From Oscillospiraceae bacterium (GTDB lineage Bacteria > Bacillota > Clostridia > Oscillospirales > CAG-272): DNA of 64,000 bases. The notes under the pieces were generated by a model, which searched no databases, was not told the origin of the DNA, and saw only the letters and a list, made by a program, of their open reading frames with translations. Location of the stretch: the NCBI GenBank assembly GCA_015063305.1, contig SVUJ01000010.1:5028-69027 (forward strand), written 5' to 3'. The translations under genes and the position numbers were made by a program. Each line of letters opens with the position of its first letter. The first letter of the stretch is position 1. This document shows, piece by piece, positions 16,934 through 30,880 of the stretch.

Positions 16934-17656
16934 ATGAAATTCGCTATTGTAAAAAAATGGTATTTTATTTTGTTATGCGCCGTTGCGTTGGCGCTGATAG
17001 TGTTTGCTATTTATTATTTTGCTGTGATCCGTCCTCAAAAGATCGAACAGAAACGGTACGAGGAGATCTTTCAAGCATATCACGAGCAGAAATATGAGGA
17101 GTATGAAAAAGAAAATCAGAAATATGCTGATTATGAAGTAGATGTTGCCTTTATCGGAGACAGCTTGACGGATAGATATGATTTGGAAAATTACTACCCC
17201 CAATATATTACCGCAAATCGTGGTATCAACGGCGATACGACCTTTGATGTAGAGAAACGGCTGCAACTCTCTCTTTATGACCTCAAGCCCAAGGTTGTCG
17301 TTATGCTGATCGGAGCGAACAATTTGGACACGATGTTTCAAAATTATGAAGCTATCCTGCAAGGAATACAAGAAAACCTGCCTCAAACAAAGGTGGTTCT
17401 CCTTTCCTTAACTGCAATGAACGGGGAAGAATGGGGGCGTAACAATCCGCTTGCGGCGTATAACAATGTTAAGATCAAGCTCCTTGCCGAGCGATACGGA
17501 TATGAATTTATTGATCTGTTCAGTGCGCTCTACGATGTTTCGGCAGGCGAAGCTTACGCAGACTATACGCTGGACGGGGGACATTTGAGCCATCTCGGCT
17601 ATACCAAGGTGACAGAGCAGATCACCCCTGTTCTTAAAGAACTTTTAGGTAGATAA
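16934..17656 (+). CDS. Membrane-anchored SGNH/GDSL lipase/esterase
   Basis: N-terminal TM helix; FIGDSLT, NRGING, IGANN and DGGH blocks. Confidence 0.92.
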   Translation: MKFAIVKKWYFILLCAVALALIVFAIYYFAVIRPQKIEQKRYEEIFQAYHEQKYEEYEKENQKYADYEVDVAFIGDSLTDRYDLENYYPQYITANRGINGDTTFDVEKRLQLSLYDLKPKVVVMLIGANNLDTMFQNYEAILQGIQENLPQTKVVLLSLTAMNGEEWGRNNPLAAYNNVKIKLLAERYGYEFIDLFSALYDVSAGEAYADYTLDGGHLSHLGYTKVTEQITPVLKELLGR

Positions 17657-17727
17657 GATCATACAAAAATCTAACCACTTTAATTGTTTTTTACTAACAA
17701 TATCATTTGCCGAAGGCAAGCATCATT

Positions 17728-17768
17728 CAAAAAACGCACCTTTGTCGGTAGACAAAAGTGCGTTTTTT
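17728..17768. terminator. Terminator hairpin downstream of tRNA-Ser
   Basis: CAAAAAACGCACCTTTGTC-GGTA-GACAAAAGTGCGTTTTTT. Confidence 0.7.
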
Positions 17769-17770
17769 GC

Positions 17771-17861
17771 TGGCGGAGAAGGAGAGATTCGAACTCTCGA
17801 ACCCTGTTACAGGTTACACGATTTCCAATCGTGCGCCCTCGACCAACTAGGCGACTTCTCC
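17771..17861 (-). tRNA. tRNA-Ser(GGA)
   Basis: Minus strand GGAGAAGTCGCCTAGTTGGTCGAGGGCGCACGATTGGAAATCGTG...GTTCGAATCTCTCCTTCTCCGCCA, with long variable arm and encoded CCA. Confidence 0.97.
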
Positions 17862-18288
17862 AAATCTATTCGATTTTTTAACCGTCTGTATCTCAGACCT
17901 ATGTATTATATCACAAGTGTTTACAAAAATCAAGAGCTTTTTTGCATTTTTTAAAAAATATTTTTAACAAATACTCTCTCATTACATATGGATTTTATAA
18001 CAAAAGTGCTGTCGCTTTTGCGACAGCCCAAATTTCGCTCAATTATTTTCGGAGAGCAGCCTGTGCAGAAAGGATAAATTTTATGGTTTTTTTGTCGGGT
18101 TTTTCTTGACGATTCCGTTTGAAAAGCTCGAAATTTTACCTTTAAGCAAATAATAGGGGGATATTTGACAATTTATCGTGTCTGTATTATTATATTATAA
18201 TATAGATGAAATGAAGCGAAAGCCGACTTTATCACTACGAAAGTAGAAATAAGGTCGGCTTTTTCTTTTGGAAAAGGAGATGATTAAA

Positions 18289-19161
18289 TTGGATGATAAG
18301 GAAAAAATTGTTATCATTCCCATAAGCGCTATTGATGATTTTTTCGACCACCCATTTCAAGTGCGTGATGATGAGGAAATGGATCGGCTTGTAAATAGCA
18401 TCATTAACAACGGTGTTCTAACCCCCGTGATACTCCGTCCAAACGGAGAGCGTTATGAGATTATTTCAGGACACAGACGAAAGTACGCTTGTAAAAAAAT
18501 CGGAATTGTCGGTGTCCCCGCCATTGTTCGTGAACTAACTCGTGAGGAAGCAATCGTTGAAATGGTGGATTCCAATTTACACCGAGAGCATATACTGCCG
18601 AGCGAAAAGGCGAGAGCGTATAAAATGAAGATGGACGCGATGAAAAGGCAAGGAAAACGCACGGATCTAACTTCCAACCCAATGGGTGGGAAGTTAAAGA
18701 GTATGGAAACCGCCAAGCTTATCGGGGAGGAGGCGGGCGAAAGCGCAAATCAAGTACGCAGATATATCCGCTTGACCAAGCTTATTCTCGGACTGCTGAC
18801 AATGGTGGACGAGGGCAAAATTGCCTTACGCCCTGCCGTAGAGATATCTTATTTGACTGTTGAGGAGCAGACGGATTTGCTTGAAACGATCGAGAGCGAG
18901 GATTGCACTCCGTCCTACGCACAAGCTATTCGAATGAGAAATCTCAGCAAGGAAGGAAACCTTGATATTGACGCTATATTCGATATTATGACCGAGCAAA
19001 AGGGCAATCAAAAAGAAAAGATCAAAATCCCTATGGAGCGTCTTGATAAGTTCTTTCCGAGAGGTATGCCGCAGAAGCGGGTCGAGGACACGATTATCAA
19101 AGCACTTGCTTTTTACCAAAAACACTTGAATAAAAAGAGAGAGGGCAGAGAGGAAAGATGA
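18289..19161 (+). CDS. ParB/RepB/Spo0J family protein (mobile-element type, no ParA)
   Basis: HPFQVRDDEEM, GVLTPVILR, YEIISGHRR (CTP-binding GxRR), VDSNLHRE, and an HTH region QVRRYIRLT. TTG start 8 nt after AGGAGA (alternative ATG 18280). Confidence 0.92.
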   Translation: MDDKEKIVIIPISAIDDFFDHPFQVRDDEEMDRLVNSIINNGVLTPVILRPNGERYEIISGHRRKYACKKIGIVGVPAIVRELTREEAIVEMVDSNLHREHILPSEKARAYKMKMDAMKRQGKRTDLTSNPMGGKLKSMETAKLIGEEAGESANQVRRYIRLTKLILGLLTMVDEGKIALRPAVEISYLTVEEQTDLLETIESEDCTPSYAQAIRMRNLSKEGNLDIDAIFDIMTEQKGNQKEKIKIPMERLDKFFPRGMPQKRVEDTIIKALAFYQKHLNKKREGREER

Positions 19162-19410
19162 GGAGAAAGAGAGAAACATAACAAGCCCCCAATGTGCGGC
19201 GTTCTGCTTTGCCTTTACACGGATTTTTGGAACGGGGGAGAAGCGAATTGTACATATGTCGAAAACAGGCATTTTAAGTCGAGTGATATCCTTGGCAAAG
19301 CAAATTATAGTATTGGACGAACATATCTCACAAAAAAATACGTCTATGTGGAAAACTATGTATAAAATTTGCAGAAAAAACCATTCCACAACTTTTTTGT
19401 CTTAAAAATA

Positions 19411-19439
19411 TTGACTTTTAACAAAAAAAGTGATATACT
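19411..19439 (+). promoter_or_regulatory. sigma-A promoter of pilin operon
   Basis: TTGACT-17bp-TATACT with extended TG. Confidence 0.75.
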
Positions 19440-19590
19440 TATTAACACCAATTCGTCTGTTGCTATTTTAGGCGAACAAAACAACAAGTAAAAGGTTCGT
19501 CTAATAGTAATTGATGAGTTGCTTTGACGGTATTCTATGAAAGGCTTAAAAGCCAATGGGAAGATCAAATAAAAGGGAACGTTTACACTT

Positions 19591-19698
19591 ATGATCCCGT
19601 TGGTTTTGATTCCTATAGCTTTGCTTATTATAGGTATCGTTGTTTTGTTTGTAAATTTATACCCCAAAATTCTTTTTGAGAAAAGGAGAAAACAATGA
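19591..19698 (+). CDS. Putative 35-aa hydrophobic leader/small membrane peptide overlapping the pilin start (ATGA)
   Basis: MIPLVLIPIALLIIGIVVLFVNLYPKILFEKRRKQ*. AAGGGA lies 12 nt upstream. Below the ORF-track cutoff. Confidence 0.4.
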   Translation: MIPLVLIPIALLIIGIVVLFVNLYPKILFEKRRKQ

Positions 19699-20885
19699 AG
19701 AAAAATTTGAACAAAAAGGGTTTTACAATCGTTGAGCTTGTAATCGTTATTGTTGTAATTGCGATTCTCGCAGCGGTACTTATTCCTACGTTTGTAAGTC
19801 TTGTGAACAAGGCTAACCGCTCTGCAGATGAGCAGGCAGTAGTACAGATGAACAAGCTTCTAGAAGTTGAGGCTATTGATGGCCAAGGTCCTCAGAAGAT
19901 TCAGGACATCAAGAAAATTCTTACTGAAAACGGATACAACCATAAGCTCGATCCTCTCTTCAAGGGATATTCCTTCGCTTGGATCGCAGAAAAGAATGTT
20001 ATTGTTCTTGTTGAAAACAACAAGGTTGTTTACCCTAAGGAATACGCAGACTACGATTTTACTAAGGTTGAGCTCTTTAACGTTGTAAAGGTAGGATCTG
20101 CTAATGATATCAAGGATCTTGCCAACGGTACATTTGCTAATATCAACGGTTTGAACTCCATTGTTCTTGAAAAGGGAATGAATGTTCTTTCTGATGCAAG
20201 TGCAAATACTGCGGAAACGAAATACTTGACCTTCAACAACGCAGGCGATATTGAAATTGACGGTAACGGTAATACCATCCAAGGAAACATCGACGTAAGC
20301 AGCGGAACTACTCTTACTCTTACAAATGTAACCATAGATGCAACAAACAGTGCACACGAGGATTGCTCCGCTGTTAAGCCCACCGCTGGATCCGTTTATA
20401 TCACCGATACAACTATTAAGGGCCAAGTGTTTGGTCTTTGCCAGAATGTTGGTCAGGCTGCTGATGTAACCGATGACATCGATTGCACGGTTGAAAACAG
20501 CACTATGGATGCTGAGATCGCACTCTATATCGGACATGGTAACTGGACATTTGAAAACTGCACATTTGTTGGCACTGTTACTATAGCTGGTGGTGCAAAT
20601 GTGACGTTCAATAACTGTACCTTTAAGGCAAAAACTGGTGTTGAGTACACTGATGAATCAGAATACACAACCTCGGGCAGTGGTGCTTTCGTTAGCCAGA
20701 ATGCTATCGTTATTATAGAAGGTCGTAATGCTACTCAGTATGAGAGCGGCAAGGTAACCTTCACTGGTTGTACTGTGACCAATGCAGAAGGCGCCGACGT
20801 AAATACTACGGGCGGTGTAAACTATCGTTTCTGCACTTATACCGGATCTGTCAGCGGTAACGATATCACTGTTGAGTGGAACTAA
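19695..20885 (+). CDS. Large type IV prepilin with C-terminal putative beta-helix adhesin domain
   Basis: KKG|FTIVELVIVIVVIAILAAVLIP class III signal; repeats such as WTFENCTF, VTFNNCTF and VTFTGCTV. Confidence 0.88.
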   Translation: MKKNLNKKGFTIVELVIVIVVIAILAAVLIPTFVSLVNKANRSADEQAVVQMNKLLEVEAIDGQGPQKIQDIKKILTENGYNHKLDPLFKGYSFAWIAEKNVIVLVENNKVVYPKEYADYDFTKVELFNVVKVGSANDIKDLANGTFANINGLNSIVLEKGMNVLSDASANTAETKYLTFNNAGDIEIDGNGNTIQGNIDVSSGTTLTLTNVTIDATNSAHEDCSAVKPTAGSVYITDTTIKGQVFGLCQNVGQAADVTDDIDCTVENSTMDAEIALYIGHGNWTFENCTFVGTVTIAGGANVTFNNCTFKAKTGVEYTDESEYTTSGSGAFVSQNAIVIIEGRNATQYESGKVTFTGCTVTNAEGADVNTTGGVNYRFCTYTGSVSGNDITVEWN

Positions 20886-20926
20886 TTAATACGTTTCGTA
20901 TAGCTGGTTGAAAGGATTTAACGACC

Positions 20927-21313
20927 TTGAAAAAGCTTAACAGAAAAGGCTTTACCATCGTAGAACTTGTAATCGTTATTGCGGTTATCGCAATTCTCGC
21001 AGCCGTTATGATTCCTACTTTCAGCGGAATGATCAAAAAGGCAAATGAGTCCGCAGCATTACAGGAAGCAACAAATACATACAAGGCTTTGCTTACAGAA
21101 GATGAATACAAGGGCGATCTTGATTTGAATGATACGGCTAATGGTGCTGACCTTTATATCAAGGTGAATCAGTCGAACAAGAACTATTATTTCAAAGTGG
21201 TAGATGGAGATATTGCTCTTGATACCACAGTTACGGCTGATCCGGACGGCTACAACGCTCTTACGGGTGAATACACGAATGTTTTCGTGTTTACCGAGAA
21301 AACAGGAGCATAA
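20927..21313 (+). CDS. Type IV prepilin, probable major pilin
   Basis: RKG|FTIVELVIVIAVIAILAAVMIP; 128 aa; TTG start; followed by a terminator. Confidence 0.88.
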   Translation: MKKLNRKGFTIVELVIVIAVIAILAAVMIPTFSGMIKKANESAALQEATNTYKALLTEDEYKGDLDLNDTANGADLYIKVNQSNKNYYFKVVDGDIALDTTVTADPDGYNALTGEYTNVFVFTEKTGA

Positions 21314-21360
21314 TTCATTAATAACCTAAGCTAAGCATTTAGGAAAAATTGCTGAACAAA

Positions 21361-21410
21361 CGCAAGCACTCTGCACTCCTTGCGGGTGCGAGAGTGCTTG
21401 CGCCTTTTTT
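21361..21410 (+). terminator. Intrinsic terminator after the two pilin genes
   Basis: CGCAAGCACTCT...AGAGTGCTTGCG followed by CCTTTTTT. Confidence 0.8.
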
Positions 21411-21453
21411 AGAAAGAATGAGAACTATGTGCAGAAAAATGTGGAATATCAAA

Positions 21454-22038
21454 ATGCTAAAGGCTCATATCGGAAAGCGCGGCAAGGGCGGGTTTACCCT
21501 TGTCGAGCTTTCTGTTGTTTTGGCTCTTTTGGCTATCCTTATGACTATGATAACATCTTTTTCTGTACTTATGAACGGCGTTGCAACCGAAAACAAGGCA
21601 GAATACGATTTTTTAGAGGATCACGCTATGCTCAAAGAAACACTTGGAGTATGGGTGGCAGAGAACGATGTGGCGGGTAGCACGTTCAAGGTCAATGAGG
21701 ACGGAACACTGAGTGTGACCGAAAACGAAATCCCAAAAAACGTGAGCTTTAATGACGGTGTTCTCACGCTTGGCGGGGATCAGAAGGCGGGGCTTGATGC
21801 GATTGACGGTGTAATCTTTACCTCAAACGATAAGCTCATCAAGTGCGTGACCTACCGAATCGCAAGGAACGGAAAGCGGATCGAGCATAGCTTTGTGTTC
21901 TCGCTCCGATGCGGAACGATACAAAACGAGAAGGCTTCATATGAGCTTTGCCATCGTGTGATGTCTGAAAAAGCTGCAGCGACTTTATCCGATATTTGGG
22001 GGCAGGCACTGCCTGCGGAGGTAGCCGATGAAGAATAA
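21454..22038 (+). CDS. Minor type IV prepilin
   Basis: KGG|FTLVELSVVLALLAILMTMI; start uncertain (21427 or 21454). Confidence 0.85.
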   Translation: MLKAHIGKRGKGGFTLVELSVVLALLAILMTMITSFSVLMNGVATENKAEYDFLEDHAMLKETLGVWVAENDVAGSTFKVNEDGTLSVTENEIPKNVSFNDGVLTLGGDQKAGLDAIDGVIFTSNDKLIKCVTYRIARNGKRIEHSFVFSLRCGTIQNEKASYELCHRVMSEKAAATLSDIWGQALPAEVADEE

Positions 22039-22453
22039 AAACAAACGCGGCTATTCTCTTGTTGAGGTCGTGATTGCTCTTTCGGTGATAGTGATTGTGA
22101 GCATTAGCGCACTTTCCATTATGCTATCCTCTGTAGTGACAAAGGCAAACGCCATCAACAGATCCCACGCCCAGAGCTTTGCCGATAACGTGTGGGAGAG
22201 CTTTAAGGCGGCAGATACGCAGGACGAATTTCTTTCTCTCATTGCCTTTTCGGATGGCGTTTTGCTGACCGAAGGCGTAACCGATGAGAGCGGAAAAACA
22301 ATCTATACTTATAATTCCGTGGAAAATAAATTTACGGCAGAAATTGCCGTAAGCTATCAAGAAAACGCACGTCCCGAATTGGAGCTCATTGTGACCGATA
22401 AGAATGGGGACGAGATTATTTCGTTTTCCTACCGAAAGGGGGACGGAATATGA
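22028..22453 (+). CDS. Minor type IV prepilin (PilV/GspI-like)
   Basis: KRG|YSLVEVVIALSVIVIVS; GGAGG RBS; overlaps the previous gene. Confidence 0.85.
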   Translation: MKNKNKRGYSLVEVVIALSVIVIVSISALSIMLSSVVTKANAINRSHAQSFADNVWESFKAADTQDEFLSLIAFSDGVLLTEGVTDESGKTIYTYNSVENKFTAEIAVSYQENARPELELIVTDKNGDEIISFSYRKGDGI

Positions 22454-22839
22454 AATTAAACCAAATACTGAAAAGCAAACGGGGAATGGCTCTTGAAAAC
22501 GCTATCCTGTTTATGATAATTATCTTTATGCTTTGCGCTCTACTGACGAGTTTGACCTTGCTTGGACATTACCAAGTGAAAATTGAAAAAATGACCTTGC
22601 AGCAAGATATAGAGATAGATCAGATCGGAGAAGATTATCTTGCAAGCGTCAAAGCGAAAACACCTTTTACAGAGACCTATGACAATTACGCCTACGAGGT
22701 GAGCGAAAACGCACTCACCGTATGGCGAAAAACGGACGAAAACAAAAAGGCGGTGCTTTACGTGGAAGCGGAGCTTACCGCAGATGAAGAATTGAACGTC
22801 AACGTATGGCGTTATTCGCTTCCAACTCAGACAGAGTGA
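22450..22839 (+). CDS. Minor prepilin lacking Glu5 (PilX/GspK-like)
   Basis: KRG|MALENAILFMIIIFMLCALL; ATGA overlap with the previous gene. Confidence 0.7.
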   Translation: MKLNQILKSKRGMALENAILFMIIIFMLCALLTSLTLLGHYQVKIEKMTLQQDIEIDQIGEDYLASVKAKTPFTETYDNYAYEVSENALTVWRKTDENKKAVLYVEAELTADEELNVNVWRYSLPTQTE

Positions 22840-22868
22840 TCTGTTACGTTAAAAACGGAGAACAGAAT

Positions 22869-24164
22869 ATGAAAAAACAAACCTATTCGACAACAATCGC
22901 GATCGACTCGGAGCGTTCAGCCATTCATTTTTATTCAATGATCGGCAACGACAAAAGTACGATTGCACACCATATAAAAAGCTATGCGGGCGGTCGGCTT
23001 GACGAGCATTTCTTTGATCGCTTTAAGGAAGCCGTAAAGGAGTTTGCACAAAATACACCGTCCGAAACCGTGAGAAAGGTCACGGTCGTTCTGCCCGACA
23101 ACGCAGTTCTGACCGATACTGTGCGAATTCCCACGATGAAAGGGCTTGGACAAACAAAAAAGACGCTTGATATAACCCTCGGAGGACTTTACCGAAACTA
23201 TAACGATCTTCGTGTGGTATCTCACGTTGCTGAGCAGAACAAGCAGTATTCCACCTTTTCTATAGCGGCGGTGCAGAAGAACATCGTATCATCAATTTTC
23301 GCCGCTTGCTCGGAAAACAAGCTGCTTGTGGACACGCTGACCTATGCTTCAAGTGCGTCGGTTGGCGGTGCGGTACAGCTCAATCCCAAGCTGAAAAACG
23401 CATCATACTTATTCCTTGATATAAAAGACGTATATTCCCGTTTCGTGTTCGTGGCAAACGGCAAGACGGTTGGCTATTACACGCTCCCCTTTGGGCTTGA
23501 ATTTTTGAGAAAACCCAAGGTAACGCAGGAGGATATGTTGTTTGACCATTCTTATGCCGAGCTTACGGTGCTTAACGCAAGAGAACGGGCGAAATCCCAA
23601 AAGCTGACGGTTATGGCTCTTGGAGAAGAATTTGCCGATGCGATTATGGATAGCCAGAGCGATAAGCTTTCGGAGGAAAGGGCAATCGAAGAGGAGATTT
23701 CCGAGGAGCTTACCACCGATGAGGAAGCTCCTGCGGATGAAGAAACCTTAACCGAGGAAGAAGATGAGGGCGAAGCCGAGGAAATCGCGCCTCTGCGTCC
23801 TCAAATCAATCAGAAGATTTTTACAAGAAAATCTCCCCGTAAGCTGCCTAAGTTTATGCAGAGGGGAATTCCCGAAACCGAAGAGGGAATTGCCTATGAG
23901 AATTTCCGTGTATTCGTGAAATGGGCATTGACCTTGATACACGGAAACGAAAAACTCACCGAGATTGGAAAGCCCGAATTTGTGTGCGTTAATCTTCCGC
24001 TTGACCTTGCGAGTGTACTTGATACGGCAAACGAGGAAGCAGAGGAAAACGGAATCACCTTTACCCGTTTGCCGAGTGAGGGGGAGGGGGCATCGGTAAT
24101 TTCAAATCTCGAACTGTACGGCGGTTTGTTCCCCAAGCAGATTGCAACGACGGGCAAGTTCTGA
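22869..24164 (+). CDS. Divergent PilM/GspL-like actin-fold alignment protein with acidic insertion
   Basis: TTIAIDSE.., VTVVLPDN, YLFLDIKDVYSRFVF and YTLPFG match the PilM pattern; it sits in the pilus operon and has an E/D-rich segment. Confidence 0.55.
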   Translation: MKKQTYSTTIAIDSERSAIHFYSMIGNDKSTIAHHIKSYAGGRLDEHFFDRFKEAVKEFAQNTPSETVRKVTVVLPDNAVLTDTVRIPTMKGLGQTKKTLDITLGGLYRNYNDLRVVSHVAEQNKQYSTFSIAAVQKNIVSSIFAACSENKLLVDTLTYASSASVGGAVQLNPKLKNASYLFLDIKDVYSRFVFVANGKTVGYYTLPFGLEFLRKPKVTQEDMLFDHSYAELTVLNARERAKSQKLTVMALGEEFADAIMDSQSDKLSEERAIEEEISEELTTDEEAPADEETLTEEEDEGEAEEIAPLRPQINQKIFTRKSPRKLPKFMQRGIPETEEGIAYENFRVFVKWALTLIHGNEKLTEIGKPEFVCVNLPLDLASVLDTANEEAEENGITFTRLPSEGEGASVISNLELYGGLFPKQIATTGKF

Positions 24165-24174
24165 GGGCGGAACA

Positions 24175-24963
24175 ATGGAAAAATTCTATTTGATTTGCGC
24201 CTACGTTCTTTCGGGAATATTCGGATTGTGCGTCGGCAGCTTTCTCAATGTGGTCATATACCGTCTGCCGAACAAAATGAGTCTTGCAAAGCCAAATTCC
24301 CATTGCCCGACCTGCAAGTATGAGCTGCGGTGGTACGATAATATTCCCGTTCTTTCCTACGTGATGCTTGGCGGTAAATGCCGCAGTTGCAAAACGCACA
24401 TTTCCTTTCGCTATACGGCGGTGGAGCTTGCCAACACGGTCTTGTGGCTCTTGTGTGCTTTTATCTTTTGGGAGAGAAGTATTCCGCTTGCTTGTATCTA
24501 TATGGTCGCCTTTTCGGTCTTTCTTTGTGTGTTCTTTATCGACCTTGAACACCAAATTATCTTTGACCGATTTCAGATCATTCTGCTCGTTCTCGGCGTG
24601 GCAAGTATTTTCTTTGACAAGGACTATGGGTGGCTTTCCCACGTAATTGGCGGTGTTTCGGGCTTTGCGGTGTTCTATCTTATTTCGTGGGGGTTTGAAA
24701 AGCTATGCGGCAAAGAGGGACTTGGCGGCGGCGATGTGAAACTTGCAGGAGTGGTCGGCTTGTTGCTCGGTTGGGAACGCTTGTTGCTCGGACTTCTGAT
24801 AGCGACTATTCCCGCAGCCGTGATTATGTTGATTCTTTCAAAGGGTAAAAAGGGAGAGAGCAGACAGTTTCCCTTTGCCCCGTTCCTTGTGGTCGGTTTC
24901 GGAGCTTCTATGCTTTTTGGAACACAGATCATAAGTTGGTATTTATCTTTGCTCGGATTATGA
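24175..24963 (+). CDS. pilD: Prepilin peptidase/N-methyltransferase (A24)
   Basis: GSFLNVVIYRLP, SHCPTC..GKCRSC, FIDLEH, LGGGDVKL and PFAPFL. Confidence 0.95.
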   Translation: MEKFYLICAYVLSGIFGLCVGSFLNVVIYRLPNKMSLAKPNSHCPTCKYELRWYDNIPVLSYVMLGGKCRSCKTHISFRYTAVELANTVLWLLCAFIFWERSIPLACIYMVAFSVFLCVFFIDLEHQIIFDRFQIILLVLGVASIFFDKDYGWLSHVIGGVSGFAVFYLISWGFEKLCGKEGLGGGDVKLAGVVGLLLGWERLLLGLLIATIPAAVIMLILSKGKKGESRQFPFAPFLVVGFGASMLFGTQIISWYLSLLGL

Positions 24964-24984
24964 AAGAAAGTGAGGTGAGAGCTT

Positions 24985-26196
24985 ATGCCAACGTATAAAT
25001 ATGTGGCGGTAAATTTGCAGAAGAAAAAATACAAGGGCATATTTATTGCCGAGGACGAAAAAGATCTTGCGGTGCAGCTTACAAAGCAAAATTTGTATTT
25101 GGTTTCTGCTTCGCTCTATAAGGGTGGCACTCCGTCGGCTTTCTTTACGCTTGGTACGGGAAAGGTCAAGCTTTCGGAGCTTACTACCTTTTGCCGACAG
25201 TTTTCCATAATGATTTCAACGGGTATTCCGTTGCTTGGTTGTATTGATAGCTTGAAGCAACAGCCCTATTCGGGATATTTCAAATCGATTTTGCAAGTCA
25301 TCAGCGAGGATTTAAAGGGCGGCGCAATGCTTTCCGAATCCCTTGATAAGCACAAAAAAGTCTTTCCCGATTTCTTTCGCAGTATGGTACACGTAGGTGA
25401 AGCAAGCGGAAAGCTCGATAGTGTATTTATCTCTCTTGCTGATTATTACGAATCCGATGCGAAAATAAAGCGAAAGGTTAAAGGTGCGCTTGCATATCCG
25501 TTGATGCTTGCTATGATGACGCTTGGTATCGTTATCATAATGTTGGCTTTCGTCGTACCGACATTTAGAGAAACGCTCTCCACGCTTGATGTAAAGCCCG
25601 AAGGCATTACGTTAGCGGTATATAACGTATCGGATTTTATTTTGAATTGGTGGCAACTCCTTGTTGCCGGAGCAATTATTCTTGGTGGCGGCATTTTTCT
25701 CTTTTCTCGCACCAAAACGGGGAAAAAAGTATTCGACATTATCAAAATCAAATGCCCCCTAATTGGGCGAATTCAGATCAATTTGATTACCGCACGTTTC
25801 GCCCGTGCGTTCAGTTTGCTTCTGGAGAGCGGAATGGATTTGGCAACAGCACTTGATACCATATCCATTATTTTGGGCAACAGTTATATTGAAGAACGGT
25901 TTAACGAGGCGGCGGAGGATGTTCGACACGGTGTTTCGCTGACAAATGCGTTCCAAAAGCAAAATTTATTTCCGCAAATGCTTCTGCAAATGATCTCGGT
26001 TGGTGAAAAAACGGCTTCTTTGGAGGAAGTGCTGGGACGCTCTTGCGTATTCTTTGACGAGCAAGTGGAGTCCTCATTGTCCTCGCTTACCTCTAAAATT
26101 CAGCCCACGATGCTGATTATTATGGGCGTAGTGATCGGAACTTTGTTTATTGCGGTTTATTCGCCAATGCTTTCCATTATGAATGGACTTGGTTGA
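24985..26196 (+). CDS. pilC: Type IV pilus platform protein PilC/GspF
   Basis: FCRQFSIMISTGIPL, VGEASGKL, ALAYP, VGEKTASL and IQPTMLIIMG. Confidence 0.95.
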   Translation: MPTYKYVAVNLQKKKYKGIFIAEDEKDLAVQLTKQNLYLVSASLYKGGTPSAFFTLGTGKVKLSELTTFCRQFSIMISTGIPLLGCIDSLKQQPYSGYFKSILQVISEDLKGGAMLSESLDKHKKVFPDFFRSMVHVGEASGKLDSVFISLADYYESDAKIKRKVKGALAYPLMLAMMTLGIVIIMLAFVVPTFRETLSTLDVKPEGITLAVYNVSDFILNWWQLLVAGAIILGGGIFLFSRTKTGKKVFDIIKIKCPLIGRIQINLITARFARAFSLLLESGMDLATALDTISIILGNSYIEERFNEAAEDVRHGVSLTNAFQKQNLFPQMLLQMISVGEKTASLEEVLGRSCVFFDEQVESSLSSLTSKIQPTMLIIMGVVIGTLFIAVYSPMLSIMNGLG

Positions 26197-26211
26197 TTTC
26201 GGAGGTGGAAG

Positions 26212-27900
26212 ATGAATATAAACAGAGAGCTTTTACAGTTTTACATATACAAAAAGATAATCAAGAAAAAGCAAGCGGAAAAGATACTTGAAGATTGTGA
26301 GCGCTTGGGTGTTTCCGTGAGAGATTATATGCTTGCAAAAGAGTACACTACGGAAGCAAGGGAACTGCCCGTTTTGGGTGAGTATTACTGTATGCCGTAT
26401 GTGGAGATTGATATGCTCGATATAGACAAGTCGCTATTTGACTTGTTTACGTTTGAGTTTATGAAGCGGTACAAGGTCATTCCCGTATCAATGAGTATGG
26501 AGGGAAAGTTGCTGATTGCAACCGCAAAGCCGCTTGATTGCTCGTCTATGTCGGCGATCAATTCGCAGATCGTTTCTCCCGTAGATTACGTTCTCGTTCC
26601 CCCCGTTCAGATTGACCGCTATATTGATTCGATAGCCGCAGTAATGTCAACCTCGGCAGCCCTTGACGATTTGAATACCGAAGGCGATGCCGCTTTGTTC
26701 TCAAACCAAAAGGTGCAGACCGATGACGAGATCGTGGAAAACGATGTGCTCAATAACCCGTCCGTGCGATTGGTGGATTCCATCATCAAGGAAGCCGTAC
26801 CGTATAGAGCGAGTGATATTCATATTGAGCCATTTGAAAAAGTGGTCAAGGTGCGTTACCGTATTGACGGTGACTTGCAAGAGAGAGCAGAGTTCCCGAT
26901 TAACTCTTATTCCGCTATATGCGCCCGTATCAAGATAATGGCGGGACTTAACATAGCGGAGCGGAGAGTCCCGCAGGATGGACGAATCAATATGATCGTA
27001 GGAGGTAAAGAGTTTGATTTCCGTGTTTCCTCGCTTCCCACGGTGTTCGGAGAAAAATTTGTTATCCGTGTGCTTGATAAAACCTCATTCAAATTTACGA
27101 GAAGCGACCTCGGATTTACAGAAGATGAAAATGTCTTGATTGATAAGATGCTTGCGAAACCTCACGGGATAATCCTACTTACCGGTCCAACGGGGTGCGG
27201 TAAGTCAACCACCTTGTATTCGTTCTTAAAAGAGGTCAACACCTCTGCCGTGAATATCGTTACTGTCGAAGATCCCGTTGAGTATATTATGCCGGGTGTA
27301 AATCAGACGCAGGTAAACACAAAAGCCAATATGACTTTCTCGGCGGCGCTCCGTTCCATTCTCCGACAAGATCCCGATGTTATAATGATTGGAGAAATGC
27401 GTGACGAGGAAACGGCAGAGATAGCCGTTAGAGCGGCAATTACGGGACACATTGTGTTCAGCACCTTGCATACCAATGATGCAACGGGAGCAATTACCCG
27501 TTTGGAGGATATGGGCGTGGCAGATTACCTTGTGGCAGACGCATTGGTTGGTGTTATTGCTCAAAGACTTGTCAAGAGGTTGTGTCCTGAATGTAAGAAG
27601 AAAGGCAAGACAAACGCAAAGGAAATGGAGATACTCGGTATTAACGAGCCTATCGGAATTTACCGTCCGCAGGGCTGCCAATTCTGCAACGGAACGGGCT
27701 ACAAGGGCAGAATTGCCGTACACGAAATTATGTATATGAACGAAAATATGCGTAACGCCGTTATCCGTGAGAAGAATTTGGAGGTGCTTCGTGACCTCGC
27801 AAAGCAAAACGGAATGGTGACTCTTTGGACTTCTTGCAAGAATCTTGTGGAAAAAGGTGTAACAAGTATTCAAGAGCTTGTGACCTTAAATGTTGAATAA
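26212..27900 (+). CDS. pilB: Type IV pilus assembly ATPase PilB/GspE
   Basis: ASDIHIEP, ERRVPQDG, GPTGCGKST (Walker A), TVEDPVE, LRQDPDVIMIGEMRD, STLHTND, and a CPEC..CQFC zinc site. Confidence 0.96.
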   Translation: MNINRELLQFYIYKKIIKKKQAEKILEDCERLGVSVRDYMLAKEYTTEARELPVLGEYYCMPYVEIDMLDIDKSLFDLFTFEFMKRYKVIPVSMSMEGKLLIATAKPLDCSSMSAINSQIVSPVDYVLVPPVQIDRYIDSIAAVMSTSAALDDLNTEGDAALFSNQKVQTDDEIVENDVLNNPSVRLVDSIIKEAVPYRASDIHIEPFEKVVKVRYRIDGDLQERAEFPINSYSAICARIKIMAGLNIAERRVPQDGRINMIVGGKEFDFRVSSLPTVFGEKFVIRVLDKTSFKFTRSDLGFTEDENVLIDKMLAKPHGIILLTGPTGCGKSTTLYSFLKEVNTSAVNIVTVEDPVEYIMPGVNQTQVNTKANMTFSAALRSILRQDPDVIMIGEMRDEETAEIAVRAAITGHIVFSTLHTNDATGAITRLEDMGVADYLVADALVGVIAQRLVKRLCPECKKKGKTNAKEMEILGINEPIGIYRPQGCQFCNGTGYKGRIAVHEIMYMNENMRNAVIREKNLEVLRDLAKQNGMVTLWTSCKNLVEKGVTSIQELVTLNVE

Positions 27901-28012
27901 ATCAAAAGCACGCTCGGCTTTAAGACGTTGTTTTGGCTATTGCGATTGCTTTAATTGTTATTTTACCTCTTGCGTAATGCGCATAGGTAAATAACATAGG
28001 TTTTACAGAATT

Positions 28013-28047
28013 AGAAAAAGCGGCAGAGTAATCTGCCGCTTTTTTCT
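28013..28047. terminator. Intrinsic terminator at end of pilus operon
   Basis: AGAAAAAGCGGCAGA-GTAA-TCTGCCGCTTTTTTCT. Confidence 0.85.
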
Positions 28048-28157
28048 ATGAATAGAGATGAATACAACGTAGACATTCAATTGGGTGTAAAAAATATATT
28101 GGCAAAGCACTCAGATCAAACAATTATTGCTAAGAAACAAGATTTTGGAGGTAAAAC

Positions 28158-28201
28158 AAAAAAAGACGACTCCGATGAGGATTTTCCTCGTCGGAATCGT
28201 C
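28158..28201 (-). terminator. ppdK terminator
   Basis: GACGACTCCGATGAGG-ATTTT-CCTCGTCGGAATCGTC, with an A-tract on its left that gives a U-tract on the minus strand. Confidence 0.75.
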
Positions 28202-28258
28202 AAATTATACATATAAATCAGTATCGGTCGCTCTTTTGTGAAAAGTTAACCCGTTGAT

Positions 28259-30880
28259 TTATTTCAGGGCTGCCTGTGCAGCAGCAAGACGTGCTATCGG
28301 AACACGGAAGGGAGAGCAGGATACGTAGTCAAGACCAAGCTTGTGGCAGAACTCAACAGATGTGGGGTCACCGCCGTGCTCGCCGCAGATACCTACGTGG
28401 AGGTTCTTGTTTGCGGGTCTGCCGAGTGAGATTGCCATCTGCATAAGCTTACCTACGCCGTTCTGGTCAAGTCTTGCGAAGGGATCGTTCTCGAATATCT
28501 TTGCATCATAGTATGCATCGAGGAACTTACCTGCGTCATCACGGGAGAATCCGAAAGTCATCTGGGTGAGGTCGTTTGTACCGAAGCAGAAGAAGTCTGC
28601 GTTCTGTGCGATCTCATCAGCAGTCAGACAAGCTCTGGGAATCTCGATCATAGTACCTACTTCGTATGCAAGCTCAACACCTGCAGCAGCGATCTCAGCA
28701 TCGGCTGTAGCAACAACTACGCTCTTAACGTACTTAAGCTCCTTAACGTCGCCAACCAGAGGAATCATGATCTCGGGTCTTACGTTCCAATCGGGATGAG
28801 CCTTCTGAGTGTTTATAGCTGCGCGGATAACAGCGGTTGTCTGCATCTTAGCTATCTCGGGATAGGTAACTGCAAGACGGCATCCTCTGTGACCCATCAT
28901 GGGGTTGAACTCGTGGAGAGATGCGATGATAGCCTTGATGTCCTCAACGCTCTTTTTCTGTGCCTTAGCAAGGAGAGCGATGTCTTCCTCGGTGGTAGGA
29001 ACGAACTCGTGGAGCGGGGGGTCAAGGAATCTGATACAAACGGGTGTTCCCTCGAGAGCCTCGTAGAGAGCCTCGAAGTCGTTCTGCTGGTAGGGAAGGA
29101 TCTTAGCAAGAGCTGCCTCTCTCTCCTCCGCAGTATCAGCACAGATCATCTCTCTGAATGCTGCAATTCTGTCAGCCTCAAAGAACATGTGCTCTGTACG
29201 GCAAAGACCGATACCCTCAGCGCCGAGCTCACGAGCCTTCTTAGCGTCTGTGGGAGTATCAGCGTTGGTTCTAACCTTGAGCGTACGGAACTCGTCAGCC
29301 CAGCCCATAATAGTGCCGAAGTTGCCCGAGATCTCGGCGTCAACGGTAGGAATGATACCGTCGTAGATAGCGCCTGTAGAACCGTCTATAGAAATGAAGT
29401 CGCCTTCTGCGAATGTCTTACCTGCGAGAGTGAACTTCTTGTTCTCCTCGTCCATATTAATGTCGCCGCAACCGGAAACGCAGCACTTACCCATACCACG
29501 AGCAACAACTGCTGCGTGAGATGTCATACCGCCGCGAACGGTGAGTATACCCTGAGCAGCCTTCATACCTGTGATATCCTCAGGAGAGGTCTCAAGTCTT
29601 ACAAGAACTACCTTCTTGCCTGCGTTGTTCCAAGCCTCTGCGTCCTCAGCGGTGAATACTACCTGACCGCAAGCAGCACCGGGGGATGCGCCAAGACCTC
29701 TACCCATAGGAGTAGCAGCCTTAAGAGCCTTTGCGTCGAACTGGGGATGGAGAAGTGTGTCAAGGTTTCTGGGGTCGATCATAAGAACGGCCTCTTCCTT
29801 GGTCTTGTGACCCTCAGCAACGAGGTCAACAGCTATCTGGAGAGCTGCGGGGGCAGTTCTCTTACCGTTACGGGTCTGGAGCATGTAGAGCTTCTTATTC
29901 TCTATAGTGAACTCCATATCCTGCATGTCGTGGTAGTGGTTCTCGAGGATGCCGCAAACCTTCTGGAATTCAGCAAAAGCCTCGGGGAACTTGTCTGCCA
30001 TCTCAGCGATGGGCATAGGAGTACGAACGCCTGCAACAACGTCCTCACCCTGAGCGTTTACAAGGAACTCACCCATAAGCTTCTTCTCGCCGGTAGCAGG
30101 GTCACGTGTGAATGCAACACCTGTTCCGCAGTCGTCACCCATATTACCGAATGCCATTGCCTGTACGTTTACAGCAGTACCCCAGCTGTAGGGAATATCG
30201 TTGTCACGGCGGTAAACGTTAGCGCGGGGGTTATCCCAGCTGCGGAATACTGCCTTAACAGCGCCGATGAGCTGCTCCTTGGGGTCGGAGGGGAAGTCAG
30301 AGCCGATCTTAGACTTGTATTCAGCCTTGAACTGCTCAGCGAGCTCCTTGAGGTCGTCAGCGGTAAGGTCAACGTCGTAAACAACTCCCTTAGCCTCTTT
30401 CATCTTATCGATGAGCTCCTCAAAGTACTTCTTTCCAACTTCCATAACGACGTCGGAGTACATCTGTATAAATCTTCTATAGCAGTCGTAAGCCCAACGA
30501 GCGTTGCCGGACTTCTTAGCCATAACCTCAACAACTTCCTCGTTAAGACCGAGGTTAAGAATGGTATCCATCATACCGGGCATGGATGCACGAGCACCGG
30601 AACGAACCGAAACGAGAAGGGGATTCTCGAGGTCGCCGAACTTCTTGCCTGTAACGCCCTCCATCTTTACGATGTAGTCCATGATCTCAGCCATTATTTC
30701 GGGGTTGATCTGTCTGCCGTCCTCATAGTACTGAGTACAAGCTTCGGTAGAGATGGTGAATCCCTGAGGAACAGGAAGACCGATCTTGGTCATCTCTGCA
30801 AGGTTAGCACCCTTACCGCCGAGGAGCTCACGCATGCTTGCGTCGCCTTCGGAAAAGAGATAGCAATACTTCTTTGCCAT
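28259..30880 (-). CDS. ppdK: Pyruvate, phosphate dikinase
   Basis: LGGKGANL, SVRSGARASMPGMMDT, GGMTSHAAVVARG (phospho-His), GLCRTEHMF, FGTNDLTQ and GICGEHGG. Confidence 0.99.
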   Translation of the reverse strand: MAKKYCYLFSEGDASMRELLGGKGANLAEMTKIGLPVPQGFTISTEACTQYYEDGRQINPEIMAEIMDYIVKMEGVTGKKFGDLENPLLVSVRSGARASMPGMMDTILNLGLNEEVVEVMAKKSGNARWAYDCYRRFIQMYSDVVMEVGKKYFEELIDKMKEAKGVVYDVDLTADDLKELAEQFKAEYKSKIGSDFPSDPKEQLIGAVKAVFRSWDNPRANVYRRDNDIPYSWGTAVNVQAMAFGNMGDDCGTGVAFTRDPATGEKKLMGEFLVNAQGEDVVAGVRTPMPIAEMADKFPEAFAEFQKVCGILENHYHDMQDMEFTIENKKLYMLQTRNGKRTAPAALQIAVDLVAEGHKTKEEAVLMIDPRNLDTLLHPQFDAKALKAATPMGRGLGASPGAACGQVVFTAEDAEAWNNAGKKVVLVRLETSPEDITGMKAAQGILTVRGGMTSHAAVVARGMGKCCVSGCGDINMDEENKKFTLAGKTFAEGDFISIDGSTGAIYDGIIPTVDAEISGNFGTIMGWADEFRTLKVRTNADTPTDAKKARELGAEGIGLCRTEHMFFEADRIAAFREMICADTAEEREAALAKILPYQQNDFEALYEALEGTPVCIRFLDPPLHEFVPTTEEDIALLAKAQKKSVEDIKAIIASLHEFNPMMGHRGCRLAVTYPEIAKMQTTAVIRAAINTQKAHPDWNVRPEIMIPLVGDVKELKYVKSVVVATADAEIAAAGVELAYEVGTMIEIPRACLTADEIAQNADFFCFGTNDLTQMTFGFSRDDAGKFLDAYYDAKIFENDPFARLDQNGVGKLMQMAISLGRPANKNLHVGICGEHGGDPTSVEFCHKLGLDYVSCSPFRVPIARLAAAQAALK

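Follow-up and report, generated by a model that had tools for sequence, protein, structure and literature searches.

A type IV pilus operon and a mobile-element ParB gene share one insertion at the 3′ end of ppdK in an Oscillospiraceae genome

Between a tRNA-Ser gene and ppdK, the genome of an Oscillospiraceae bacterium (GenBank assembly GCA_015063305.1) carries a compositionally foreign island of about 10 kb in which a ParB-family gene is followed by an operon for a type IV pilus. We analysed this island within a stretch of 64,000 nucleotides (nt), called the window throughout (contig SVUJ01000010.1, here C22, positions 5028–69027; coordinates below are those of the window), of an assembly of 1.58 Mb in 22 contigs that is 94.6% complete and has 47% G+C. 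On balance, we read the island as a lineage-specific mosaic in which ParB is an intact remnant of the vehicle. The DNA from about 18069 to about 28150 would be an acquired mosaic island that entered an ancestral ppdK 26 nt short of its 3′ end and whose two parts, the pilus operon and the single ParB gene, had separate histories. The first part would supply a full set of assembly genes for a type IV pilus that does not retract (five pilins, a PilM-fold protein, PilD, PilC and PilB), transcribed from its own putative sigma-A-type promoter and probably building an adhesive fibre; the second would be an intact mobile-element ParB gene with an internal palindromic site, perhaps what is left of an element that carried the pilus operon or landed beside it, its recombinase and transfer genes having since gone.

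The gene content agrees with an earlier, sequence-only reading of the same DNA, which had described an orphan parB followed by co-directional genes for five prepilins, a PilM-like protein, PilD, PilC and PilB, closed by a terminator. Every item of that description was confirmed, and its statement that ParA, an integrase and a type IV secretion system (T4SS) are missing was upheld by family searches of the island's open reading frames (ORFs), which found no ParA, integrase, relaxase or T4SS family among them.

Results

An insertion near the end of ppdK

The left border of the island is marked by a copy of the last 26 nt of ppdK, stop codon included, which is oriented like the real gene and is followed by its own terminator-like hairpin reading on the − strand (Table 1; here and below, promoters are consensus predictions and terminators are consensus or energy predictions). 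This displaced fragment aligned with the ppdK ends of genus relatives, matching that of one of them, G003, at 25 of 27 nt (E = 6e-5). At the right border, 28152–28258 is the native downstream region of ppdK, and 28152–28420 is 81% identical to the ppdK end and downstream DNA of another relative, G010. Because the displaced fragment lies on the left and the native ppdK end on the right, the DNA from about 18069 to about 28150, ParB gene and pilus operon alike, lies inside one insertion 26 nt from the ancestral end of ppdK. Neither the sequence nor the terminator is the same at the two ppdK ends, a difference that would be better explained by recombination with donor DNA bearing a ppdK end of its own than by an att pair.

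Two other routes of entry were considered and set aside. As att-type direct repeats the borders are unconvincing, the likeness of the left and right ppdK ends within the window alone not being significant (18 of 300 shuffles reach it). As an integration site, the tRNA-Ser gene does not fit the geometry of a target, because it is whole and turns its 5′ side towards ParB.

Together with the 90 nt on its 5′ side, this tRNA-Ser is 84% identical to G003. There, the same tRNA-Ser lies 4.6 kb from ppdK, and the interval holds a gene for a GDPD/CBM6/InlB-repeat surface protein of 1396 amino acids (aa) (L128; G003:C65, 2779–6969); the presence of another gene between the same landmarks indicates that the interval is a variable locus, in these two genomes one for surface structures. 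PpdK is 92–94% identical across the genus, and at 11 of the 12 ppdK loci fetched the downstream genes share nothing with the left flank of the window, only G003 keeping tRNA-Ser near ppdK. The question raised by the sequence-only reading, whether close relatives show an empty site, thus received a divided answer: the interval is variable, with other cargo in G003, but no true empty site was found, either in the 12 ppdK loci or by a genus-wide DNA search with 17862–18110, which matched mostly a multi-copy promoter-like stretch. Beside the tRNA-Ser gene, the AT-rich stretch 17896–17966 has many matches per genome across the genus at 75–88% identity and is a multi-copy, promoter-type motif. Contigs of the set X5 bridge the junction between ParB and the pilins without differences; X5 possibly belongs to the source campaign, so these contigs are not independent.

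A foreign composition

Codon usage was compared with 556 long ORFs of the genome, in which isoleucine codons are ATA at 0.56 and ATT at 0.14 and glutamate codons are GAG at 0.68. ATA falls to 0.00–0.27 in ParB and in all but one of the nine pilus genes, where it is outnumbered by ATT (by ATC in the genes for the 396-aa, 128-aa and 229-aa pilins), the exception being the 129-aa gene at 22450–22839 (ATT 0.22, ATA 0.44); GAA stands at 0.40–0.71 in the island genes. The corresponding values for mfd are ATA 0.71 and GAG 0.79, and the counts bear out the contrast previously noted by eye between an ATT/GAA style here and an ATA/GAG style in mfd. In tetranucleotide composition, 5-kb segments over 17474–27473 lie at the 95.5–98th percentile of deviation among 597 such segments of the genome; the island is deviant on both of the measures that had been proposed as checks. 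To the left of the tRNA-Ser, a GDSL lipase-like gene (16934–17656) has island-like usage as well (ATT 0.31, ATA 0.12, GAA 0.60) and may also be foreign.

The pilus operon recurs in relatives without ParB

Relatives of the island's PilB are present in 3 of 36 other genomes of the genus (G018, 96% identical; G017, 78%; G010, 70%) and in 3 of 24 other families of the order, many of these genomes being incomplete and the contigs of metagenome-assembled genomes (MAGs) often short. A PilB scan of species-representative genomes gave 80 loci, the best of which (L044–L051, at 70–89% PilB identity) come from MAGs labelled as various Clostridia. The gene order of the window (pilins, 129-aa gene, PilM-like gene, PilD, PilC, PilB) is common to L044–L051, G017, G018 and G010; DNA likeness between the window and its relatives runs from the ribosome-binding site of the first pilin (about 19674–19683) to the PilB stop codon and no further. 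The flanks of these same-type operons consist of differing housekeeping genes (ffh/ylxM, H+-PPase, MscS, SpoIIIAH and others) with neither ParB nor a recombinase. Operons of this pilus type move as a unit among gut Clostridia. Such patchy distribution, with the deviant composition and the displaced ppdK fragment, supports the earlier suggestion that the pilus operon was acquired horizontally.

ParB was not part of what moved in any operon where this could be read. No ParB-like sequence was detected by tblastn (E up to 1e-5) at any of the 80 PilB loci, nor in the five same-type operons with at least 0.95 kb of readable upstream DNA (L046, L048, L050, L051 and G017); the upstream DNA of L047 is too short to tell, and that of G018, L044, L045 and G010 is cut by contig ends. 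The operon of G018, the closest by PilB, has a downstream neighbourhood unlike that of the window, and no ParB-like gene was found in its assembly, which is 89% complete. Within the genus, full-length ParB-like genes occur in eight genomes and PilB in three; only G010 has both, on separate contigs. The proposal that ParB and the pilus constitute one system therefore fared badly: the order parB, pilins, pilM, pilD, pilC, pilB was not found elsewhere, homologous loci show no linkage to parB, and the exact pairing of this ParB with a PilB-type operon is found nowhere else.

Two features of related operons stand apart from this argument. At L026 (15919–18642) and L049 (7084–9798), a gene for a protein of about 900 aa with GAP1-N2/GAP1-M (GTPase-associated protein) domains directly follows the pilus operon. 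The TANB77 pilin cluster, in which machinery genes lead and which is kept throughout an order according to the accessible text of its description (PMC11680825), was rejected as a match, being unlike the rare operon of the window in both respects.

ParB has relatives on mobile elements

The ParB gene is a clear family member (PF02195, E = 5.8e-17 and 62 bits against a cut-off of 26.3; TIGR00180, 83.2 bits against 58.45), and its N-terminal domain aligns to Spo0J (1vz0; E = 2.4e-16). In this alignment its GxRR box, SGHRRKYA, corresponds to AGERRYRAA of 1vz0, with His in place of the usual Glu; G64, H65, R66 and R67 are kept family-wide. The central helix-turn-helix domain scores below the cut-off in the window (PF17762, 18.4 bits against 22.6) and reaches E = 1.7e-6 to 2.4e-7 in relatives. 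There is no ParA beside the gene in the island: the only ParA relative of the genome is on contig C4, between two other ParB_N genes in what resembles a chromosomal noc/soj/spo0J cluster, and the generally known parS consensus has four perfect copies, all on C4 and none on the contig of the window.

Relatives of this ParB are patchy and often multi-copy, at 45–75% identity, with eight matches in G010. The nearest are those of G015 (75%) and L136–L138 (69–72%); no near-identical ParB was found in metagenomes, where the best match is 72% identical. The contexts of these relatives support the earlier view that the gene is of mobile-element origin. On longer contigs, they lie between a relaxase and a large serine recombinase at an element edge (L034, L035, L028 and L032), within the order NikA, relaxase, ParB, tyrosine integrase, tRNA (L031 and the L189 group), after ParA (L029 and L030) or ahead of Flp/Tad-type genes. 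Outside the window, the clade of this ParB is found throughout in integrative or conjugative elements. Some Firmicutes integrative and mobilizable elements (IMEs) with serine recombinases likewise carry genes for ParB relatives, whose presumed task is partition of the excised form, and a review of such elements, in the part available, records RepA and ParB on a serine-recombinase IME (PMC5704250). In L136, a partial tRNA 3′ end lies 1.2 kb before ParB (L136:31–75), like an att scar, and the L189 group ends at a tRNA about 100 nt past the integrase. More generally, the tRNA 3′ ends that ParB-bearing elements adjoin read TGGCGGAG...GATTCGAAC, and tRNA genes ending in this way look like common targets of such elements.

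None of this equipment accompanies the ParB gene of the window. The hallmarks of an integrative element, recombinase and relaxase, are not in the island, whose flanks show a displaced gene-end fragment and no clear att pair. Searches for remnants of the genes beside ParB in relatives (relaxase, recombinase and small ORFs) gave no tblastn or tblastx match in the window or the genome, and a homology search of the genome returned no relatives of relaxase, serine recombinase or NikA; its two tyrosine recombinases are both on contigs other than that of the window.

These absences bear on one alternative, according to which the whole 10-kb island is still mobilisable, ParB and its palindrome (as a partition site or an oriT-like hairpin) serving an excised or tandem form while recombinase and relaxase act in trans. 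ParB and the pilus genes do lie within one insertion scar, relaxase genes do adjoin ParB in relatives, and one contig of the set X7 joins 28282 back to 18099, near the island borders, with 29 other letters between. That joint, however, has a depth of 4.3 and comes from a single contig at a likeness threshold of 85, and a simpler account is that the left ppdK fragment of X7 aligned to the right copy and the sequence then diverged over 18069–18098. The genome offers no relaxase or serine recombinase to act in trans, and its tyrosine recombinases are encoded elsewhere; moreover, the flanking 'repeat' is a 26-nt gene-end fragment unlike the right copy in sequence and terminator, which suits donor recombination better than an att pair. 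We consider continued mobility very improbable.

A co-varying palindrome within the ParB gene

The ParB gene contains a palindrome (Table 1) at the linker that encodes DLTSNPMGGKL, unique in the window and in the genome. Palindromes with at least 11 pairs occupy the equivalent place in 69 of 88 homologue segments. In an alignment of 40 distinct sequences, set in codon register from the DLT motif (48 rows that lacked the motif or were duplicates were left out), 90.7% of cells are paired; shuffling gave 72.9%, with none of 500 shuffles reaching the observed value, and sliding the partners gave no more than 45%. Changes on both sides affect 93 cells, compared with 32.5 after shuffling. The outer AACTT/AAGTT and the inner CCA.TGG are nearly fixed, whereas the five positions between them co-vary. 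A dimer-binding site of diverging specificity would show this pattern, and a candidate parS-like loading site is its likely identity; a hairpin in RNA or single-stranded DNA is an alternative that the pattern also allows.

The palindrome lies 0.74 kb upstream of the promoter-like site of the pilin operon, and no copy of it was found at that promoter or elsewhere in the genome. Among 16 loci of relatives of at least 6 kb, no further full copy was seen, and 5 of the 16 have stray half-site near-matches with two mismatches. Promoter-like sites are no commoner in the region than in shuffles by a consensus scan (21 against 18.4), and the one at 18165–18193 is the only good one before ParB. Between it and ParB stands a strong hairpin (18213–18268; free energy, dG, −28.6; z −6.3; 0 of 200 shuffles as good), and like hairpins precede ParB in the closest relatives, and a 240-aa ORF upstream of ParB in others (L136, L138, L140, L141 and L008).

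A ParB clade that heads Flp/Tad pilus operons

Among 80 metagenome loci with related ParB genes, an A24 prepilin peptidase encoded in the same direction lies within 4 kb in 19 of the 46 loci with at least 2.5 kb readable downstream, and a TadA-like ATPase within 8 kb in 18 of the 30 with at least 5.5 kb; these counts overstate independence, because the Tad-linked loci are near-copies of few elements. PilB or PilC was present in none of the 80. In L144 (437–11214), the order is ParB, four DUF6133 small proteins, A24 peptidase, two genes without assignment, CpaB/RcpC, a TadZ-like gene, TadA, two further genes and DUF4320; we read the DUF6133 proteins as Flp-like. A ParA-less ParB followed by DUF6133/Tad-type genes is also seen in L147, L138 (173–2651) and L139. 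The window itself contains no TadA, CpaB or DUF6133, and TadZ and Flp-type pilins are likewise missing from both window and genome; the spacer between its ParB and first pilin scores no better than shuffles against the ParB-to-Flp spacers of relatives, and our literature search found no publication naming DUF6133 or DUF4320.

A quick maximum-likelihood tree of 76 ParB proteins (support as the Shimodaira–Hasegawa-like approximate likelihood ratio, SH-aLRT, only; careful search unfinished; several long branches) places the window's ParB in a clade of 44 rows (SH-aLRT 93). Of these, 17 are linked to Tad genes, 3 only to the A24 peptidase and 1 to ParA, and the contigs of another 18 are too short for a verdict; relaxase- or recombinase-linked and ParA-linked ParB genes form other clades. 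The group nearest to the window's gene (support 99) includes L138, in which a DUF6133 pilin-like gene and an A24 peptidase come after ParB. A ParA-less ParB heading a pilus operon, of the Flp/Tad class, is thus this clade's habit.

Remnant or regulator

Several observations weigh against our preferred reading of the island as a mosaic in which ParB is a relic. ParB is not decaying: among 79 family members, 70 columns reach a conservation of 90% or more, and the protein of the window departs from none of them; its palindrome, too, is undamaged. Homology to its nearest relatives stops within a few bases of the ORF on both sides (18220/18251 to 19168/19175), a tightness expected if selection had retained the ParB gene alone. 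The pilus operon shares a single scar with ParB, so the two may have arrived as a unit, and, given the habit of the clade, the parallel in the window may not be chance. Finally, the upstream DNA of the three closest operons (G018, L044 and L045) ends at contig ends, where linkage to ParB is unreadable.

The integrity of the gene, with all family-invariant positions conserved, the tight ends of homology and the shared scar would also suit an account in which ParB functions without ParA as a clamp like KorB, BisD or VirB, loading at 18668–18696, sliding or spreading over some 0.74 kb to the pilin promoter and setting the level or the on/off state of pilin expression, the island being a re-wired 'ParB then Flp/Tad pilus' module in which a PilB-type pilus has replaced Tad. 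Its GHRR box aligned to the GERR box of Spo0J, its single, intragenic and co-varying palindrome, and a clade that is mostly ParA-less and heads pilus operons (the 19 of 46 with A24 peptidase and 18 of 30 with TadA) are consistent with this account, as is the lack of any listed + strand terminator-like site between the ParB stop codon and the first pilin. There are precedents, as far as the available parts of the sources go, in KorB, which exerts long-range silencing (PMC11790492), in the BisD–CTP (cytidine triphosphate) clamp, which activates ICEclc transfer genes (PMC12409273), and in VirB of Shigella, a ParB-fold CTP switch that regulates transcription (PMC10770331). Nevertheless, the pairing was found at none of the homologous PilB-type operons, no second copy of the operator lies near the promoter and no clamp-locking partner gene is apparent, while a strong terminator-like hairpin separates the ParB start from the only good promoter-like site. 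The Tad-linked loci, as noted, derive from a few elements, and module order on mobile elements need not mean regulation. Taken jointly, the working clamp and the re-wired module strike us as a serious contender that is nonetheless unlikely, and we favour a ParB with no dedicated role in control of the pilus.

Genes of the pilus operon

Every gene in the interval from tRNA-Ser to ppdK is on the + strand by the ORF list and family searches (Table 1). Of the pilins, the 128-aa protein is the likely major one, judged by its size. The position of the N_methyl motif in the 229-aa ORF suggests that the true start is Met at 21439 or 21454, and homologues of the 129-aa gene occupy the equivalent position in related operons. 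The 452-aa protein has no Pfam match; its structure, predicted from 12 aligned sequences (mean predicted local distance difference test, pLDDT, 72.3; residues 266–347 form a disordered acidic insert), has as its top Foldseek matches PilM of Pseudomonas aeruginosa, Thermus thermophilus and Myxococcus xanthus (5eoy, E = 4e-14; 5eox, 5eq6, 2ych and 3jc8), followed by FtsA and the GspL cytoplasmic domain, and the ESM Atlas gives a PilM_2 match as a lead only. Because the best structural matches are PilM, the label 'PilM-like' used in the sequence-only reading stands, by predicted fold only.

Table 1. Features of the tRNA-Ser to ppdK interval, in window coordinates
Feature	Position	Strand	Evidence or remark
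tRNA-Ser(GGA)	17771–17861	−	ARAGORN; Rfam tRNA 57.4 bits; left landmark of the variable interval
Displaced ppdK 3′ end	18008–18068	−	last 26 nt incl. stop, 18043–18068; terminator-like hairpin 18008–18027
Promoter-like site upstream of ParB	18165–18193	+	TTGACA-17-TATTAT, 11/12 consensus match
Strong hairpin then U-run	18213–18268	+	between the 18165–18193 site and the ParB start
ParB-family gene, GHRR box	18280–19161	+	293 aa from ATG 18280; ORF opens at TTG 18268
Palindrome within the ParB gene	18668–18696		14-nt arms, 13 pairs, 1-nt centre; candidate ParB loading site
Promoter-like site, pilin operon	19411–19439	+	TTGACT-17-TATACT with TG; consensus match only
Prepilin, 396 aa, large C-terminal module	19695–20885	+	N_methyl E 1.3e-6
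Prepilin, 128 aa	20927–21313	+	N_methyl E 3.2e-7; NCBIfam pilin models
Prepilin, 229-aa ORF	21349–22038	+	N_methyl motif at residues 44–68
Minor prepilin, 141 aa	22028–22453	+	N_methyl E 3.4e-6; PilV, GspI, ComGE models match below cut-offs
Fifth pilin-like gene, 129 aa	22450–22839	+	no family match; non-canonical leader KRG/MALEN (slash, cleavage point), Glu at +5, read from translation
PilM-fold cytoplasmic protein, 452 aa	22806–24164	+	no Pfam match; predicted fold
Prepilin peptidase PilD	24142–24963	+	A24_N_bact E 1.2e-35; Peptidase_A24 E 1e-18
Platform protein PilC	24985–26196	+	T2SSF E 8.9e-60
Assembly ATPase PilB, MshEN N-terminal domain	26212–27900	+	T2SSE E 7.4e-137; MshEN E 1e-14
Intrinsic terminator closing the operon	28012–28047	+	hairpin with U-run, dG −22.7, z −6.8
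Intact ppdK with native 3′ untranslated region and terminator	28152–30880 (gene 28259–30880)	−	Pfam; right border of the island

A type IVa-like set is present: assembly ATPase, platform protein, prepilin peptidase and pilins with class III leaders. PilB scores 568.8 bits with TIGR02538, below the cut-off of 675.65, and is itself the single T2SSE match of the whole assembly; neither PilT nor TadA is therefore found, in keeping with the earlier statement that a retraction ATPase is missing. No PF05137 or PF04350 match to PilN or PilO occurs in the genome, an absence that is weak because both models match only 3 of 14 control genomes. With PilB, PilC, PilD, the PilM-fold protein and the pilins all in the operon, the description of the module as self-contained also proved apt. 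The terminator closing the operon is as good in none of 200 shuffles, and no Rfam match to a riboswitch or leader RNA was found ahead of the pilins (19162–19694, E up to 1).

Residues 120–396 of the 396-aa pilin resemble right-handed beta-helix proteins in the ESM Atlas (template modelling score by query 0.66–0.76; a lead only), which suggests that this pilin is a modular adhesin; in S. sanguinis and monoderm type IV pili, pilins of modular build whose C-terminal domains are bulky have been described (10.1101/2021.01.27.428410, in the part available). Just one longer homologue of this pilin was seen, in G017, at 34% identity. The ORF that follows the 128-aa pilin gene contains in its 5′ portion, just past the pilin gene, a terminator-like hairpin and T-run (21381–21405), which could attenuate transcription downstream of the likely major pilin.

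Discussion

If the island is read as an acquired mosaic, a small-genome gut Clostridia lineage would have gained a complete adhesion-type pilus by a single 10-kb insertion at a variable locus where a relative holds a large surface protein. Should ParB be no more than a relic, what we describe is a genomic island of the usual sort. The wider yield is the ParB clade itself, mostly ParA-less, heading pilus operons and with a co-varying palindrome within its own gene; if that palindrome is a loading site, the clade would offer many natural protein–site pairs for the study of ParB specificity and a Gram-positive counterpart to the control of transfer genes by KorB and BisD. In its fullest form, such a view would turn this mostly ParA-less clade, carried by mobile elements of gut Firmicutes, into clamps of the KorB/BisD type that load at the palindrome in their own gene and govern the adjacent downstream pilus operon, the window showing one such head re-coupled to a PilB-type pilus and fixed in the chromosome; this broader proposal we hold to be a slightly longer shot than a working clamp in the window. 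Among the matches listed in our literature search, no publication links transcription control of the ParB/KorB CTP type with type IV pili.

Among known systems, the pilus operon comes closest to the type IV pili of monoderms (Clostridia; the pil locus of Streptococcus sanguinis), with which it shares PilB with MshEN, PilC, PilD, a PilM-fold protein and one small plus several minor pilins in one operon; S. sanguinis loci are among the PilB relatives at 45–46% identity. It differs in that its genome has no PilT match and, by weak models, no PilN/PilO match, and in that its pilins come first and its ATPase last, unlike the pil loci of Clostridia and S. sanguinis.

The ParB gene can be likened, by description rather than by sequence, to the ParB of Firmicutes IMEs (such as that of the tet(O) fragment), its own relatives adjoining relaxase and serine recombinase; in the window it stands alone, with no recombinase, relaxase or replication gene. 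With KorB of RK2, BisD of ICEclc and VirB of Shigella it shares the ParB fold, derivation from mobile elements, a clade without dedicated ParA, a place upstream of surface-filament genes and a candidate single loading site, although the relationship seen in sequence does not go beyond the ParB_N domain and neither a partner like KorA or TrbA nor an operator at the target promoter was found. Finally, the machine of the window is of the PilB/PilC/PilM type, which none of the 80 ParB loci has, but in its layout, ParB, then pilins, peptidase and ATPase, the island resembles the Flp/Tad (type IVc) modules on Gram-positive mobile elements.

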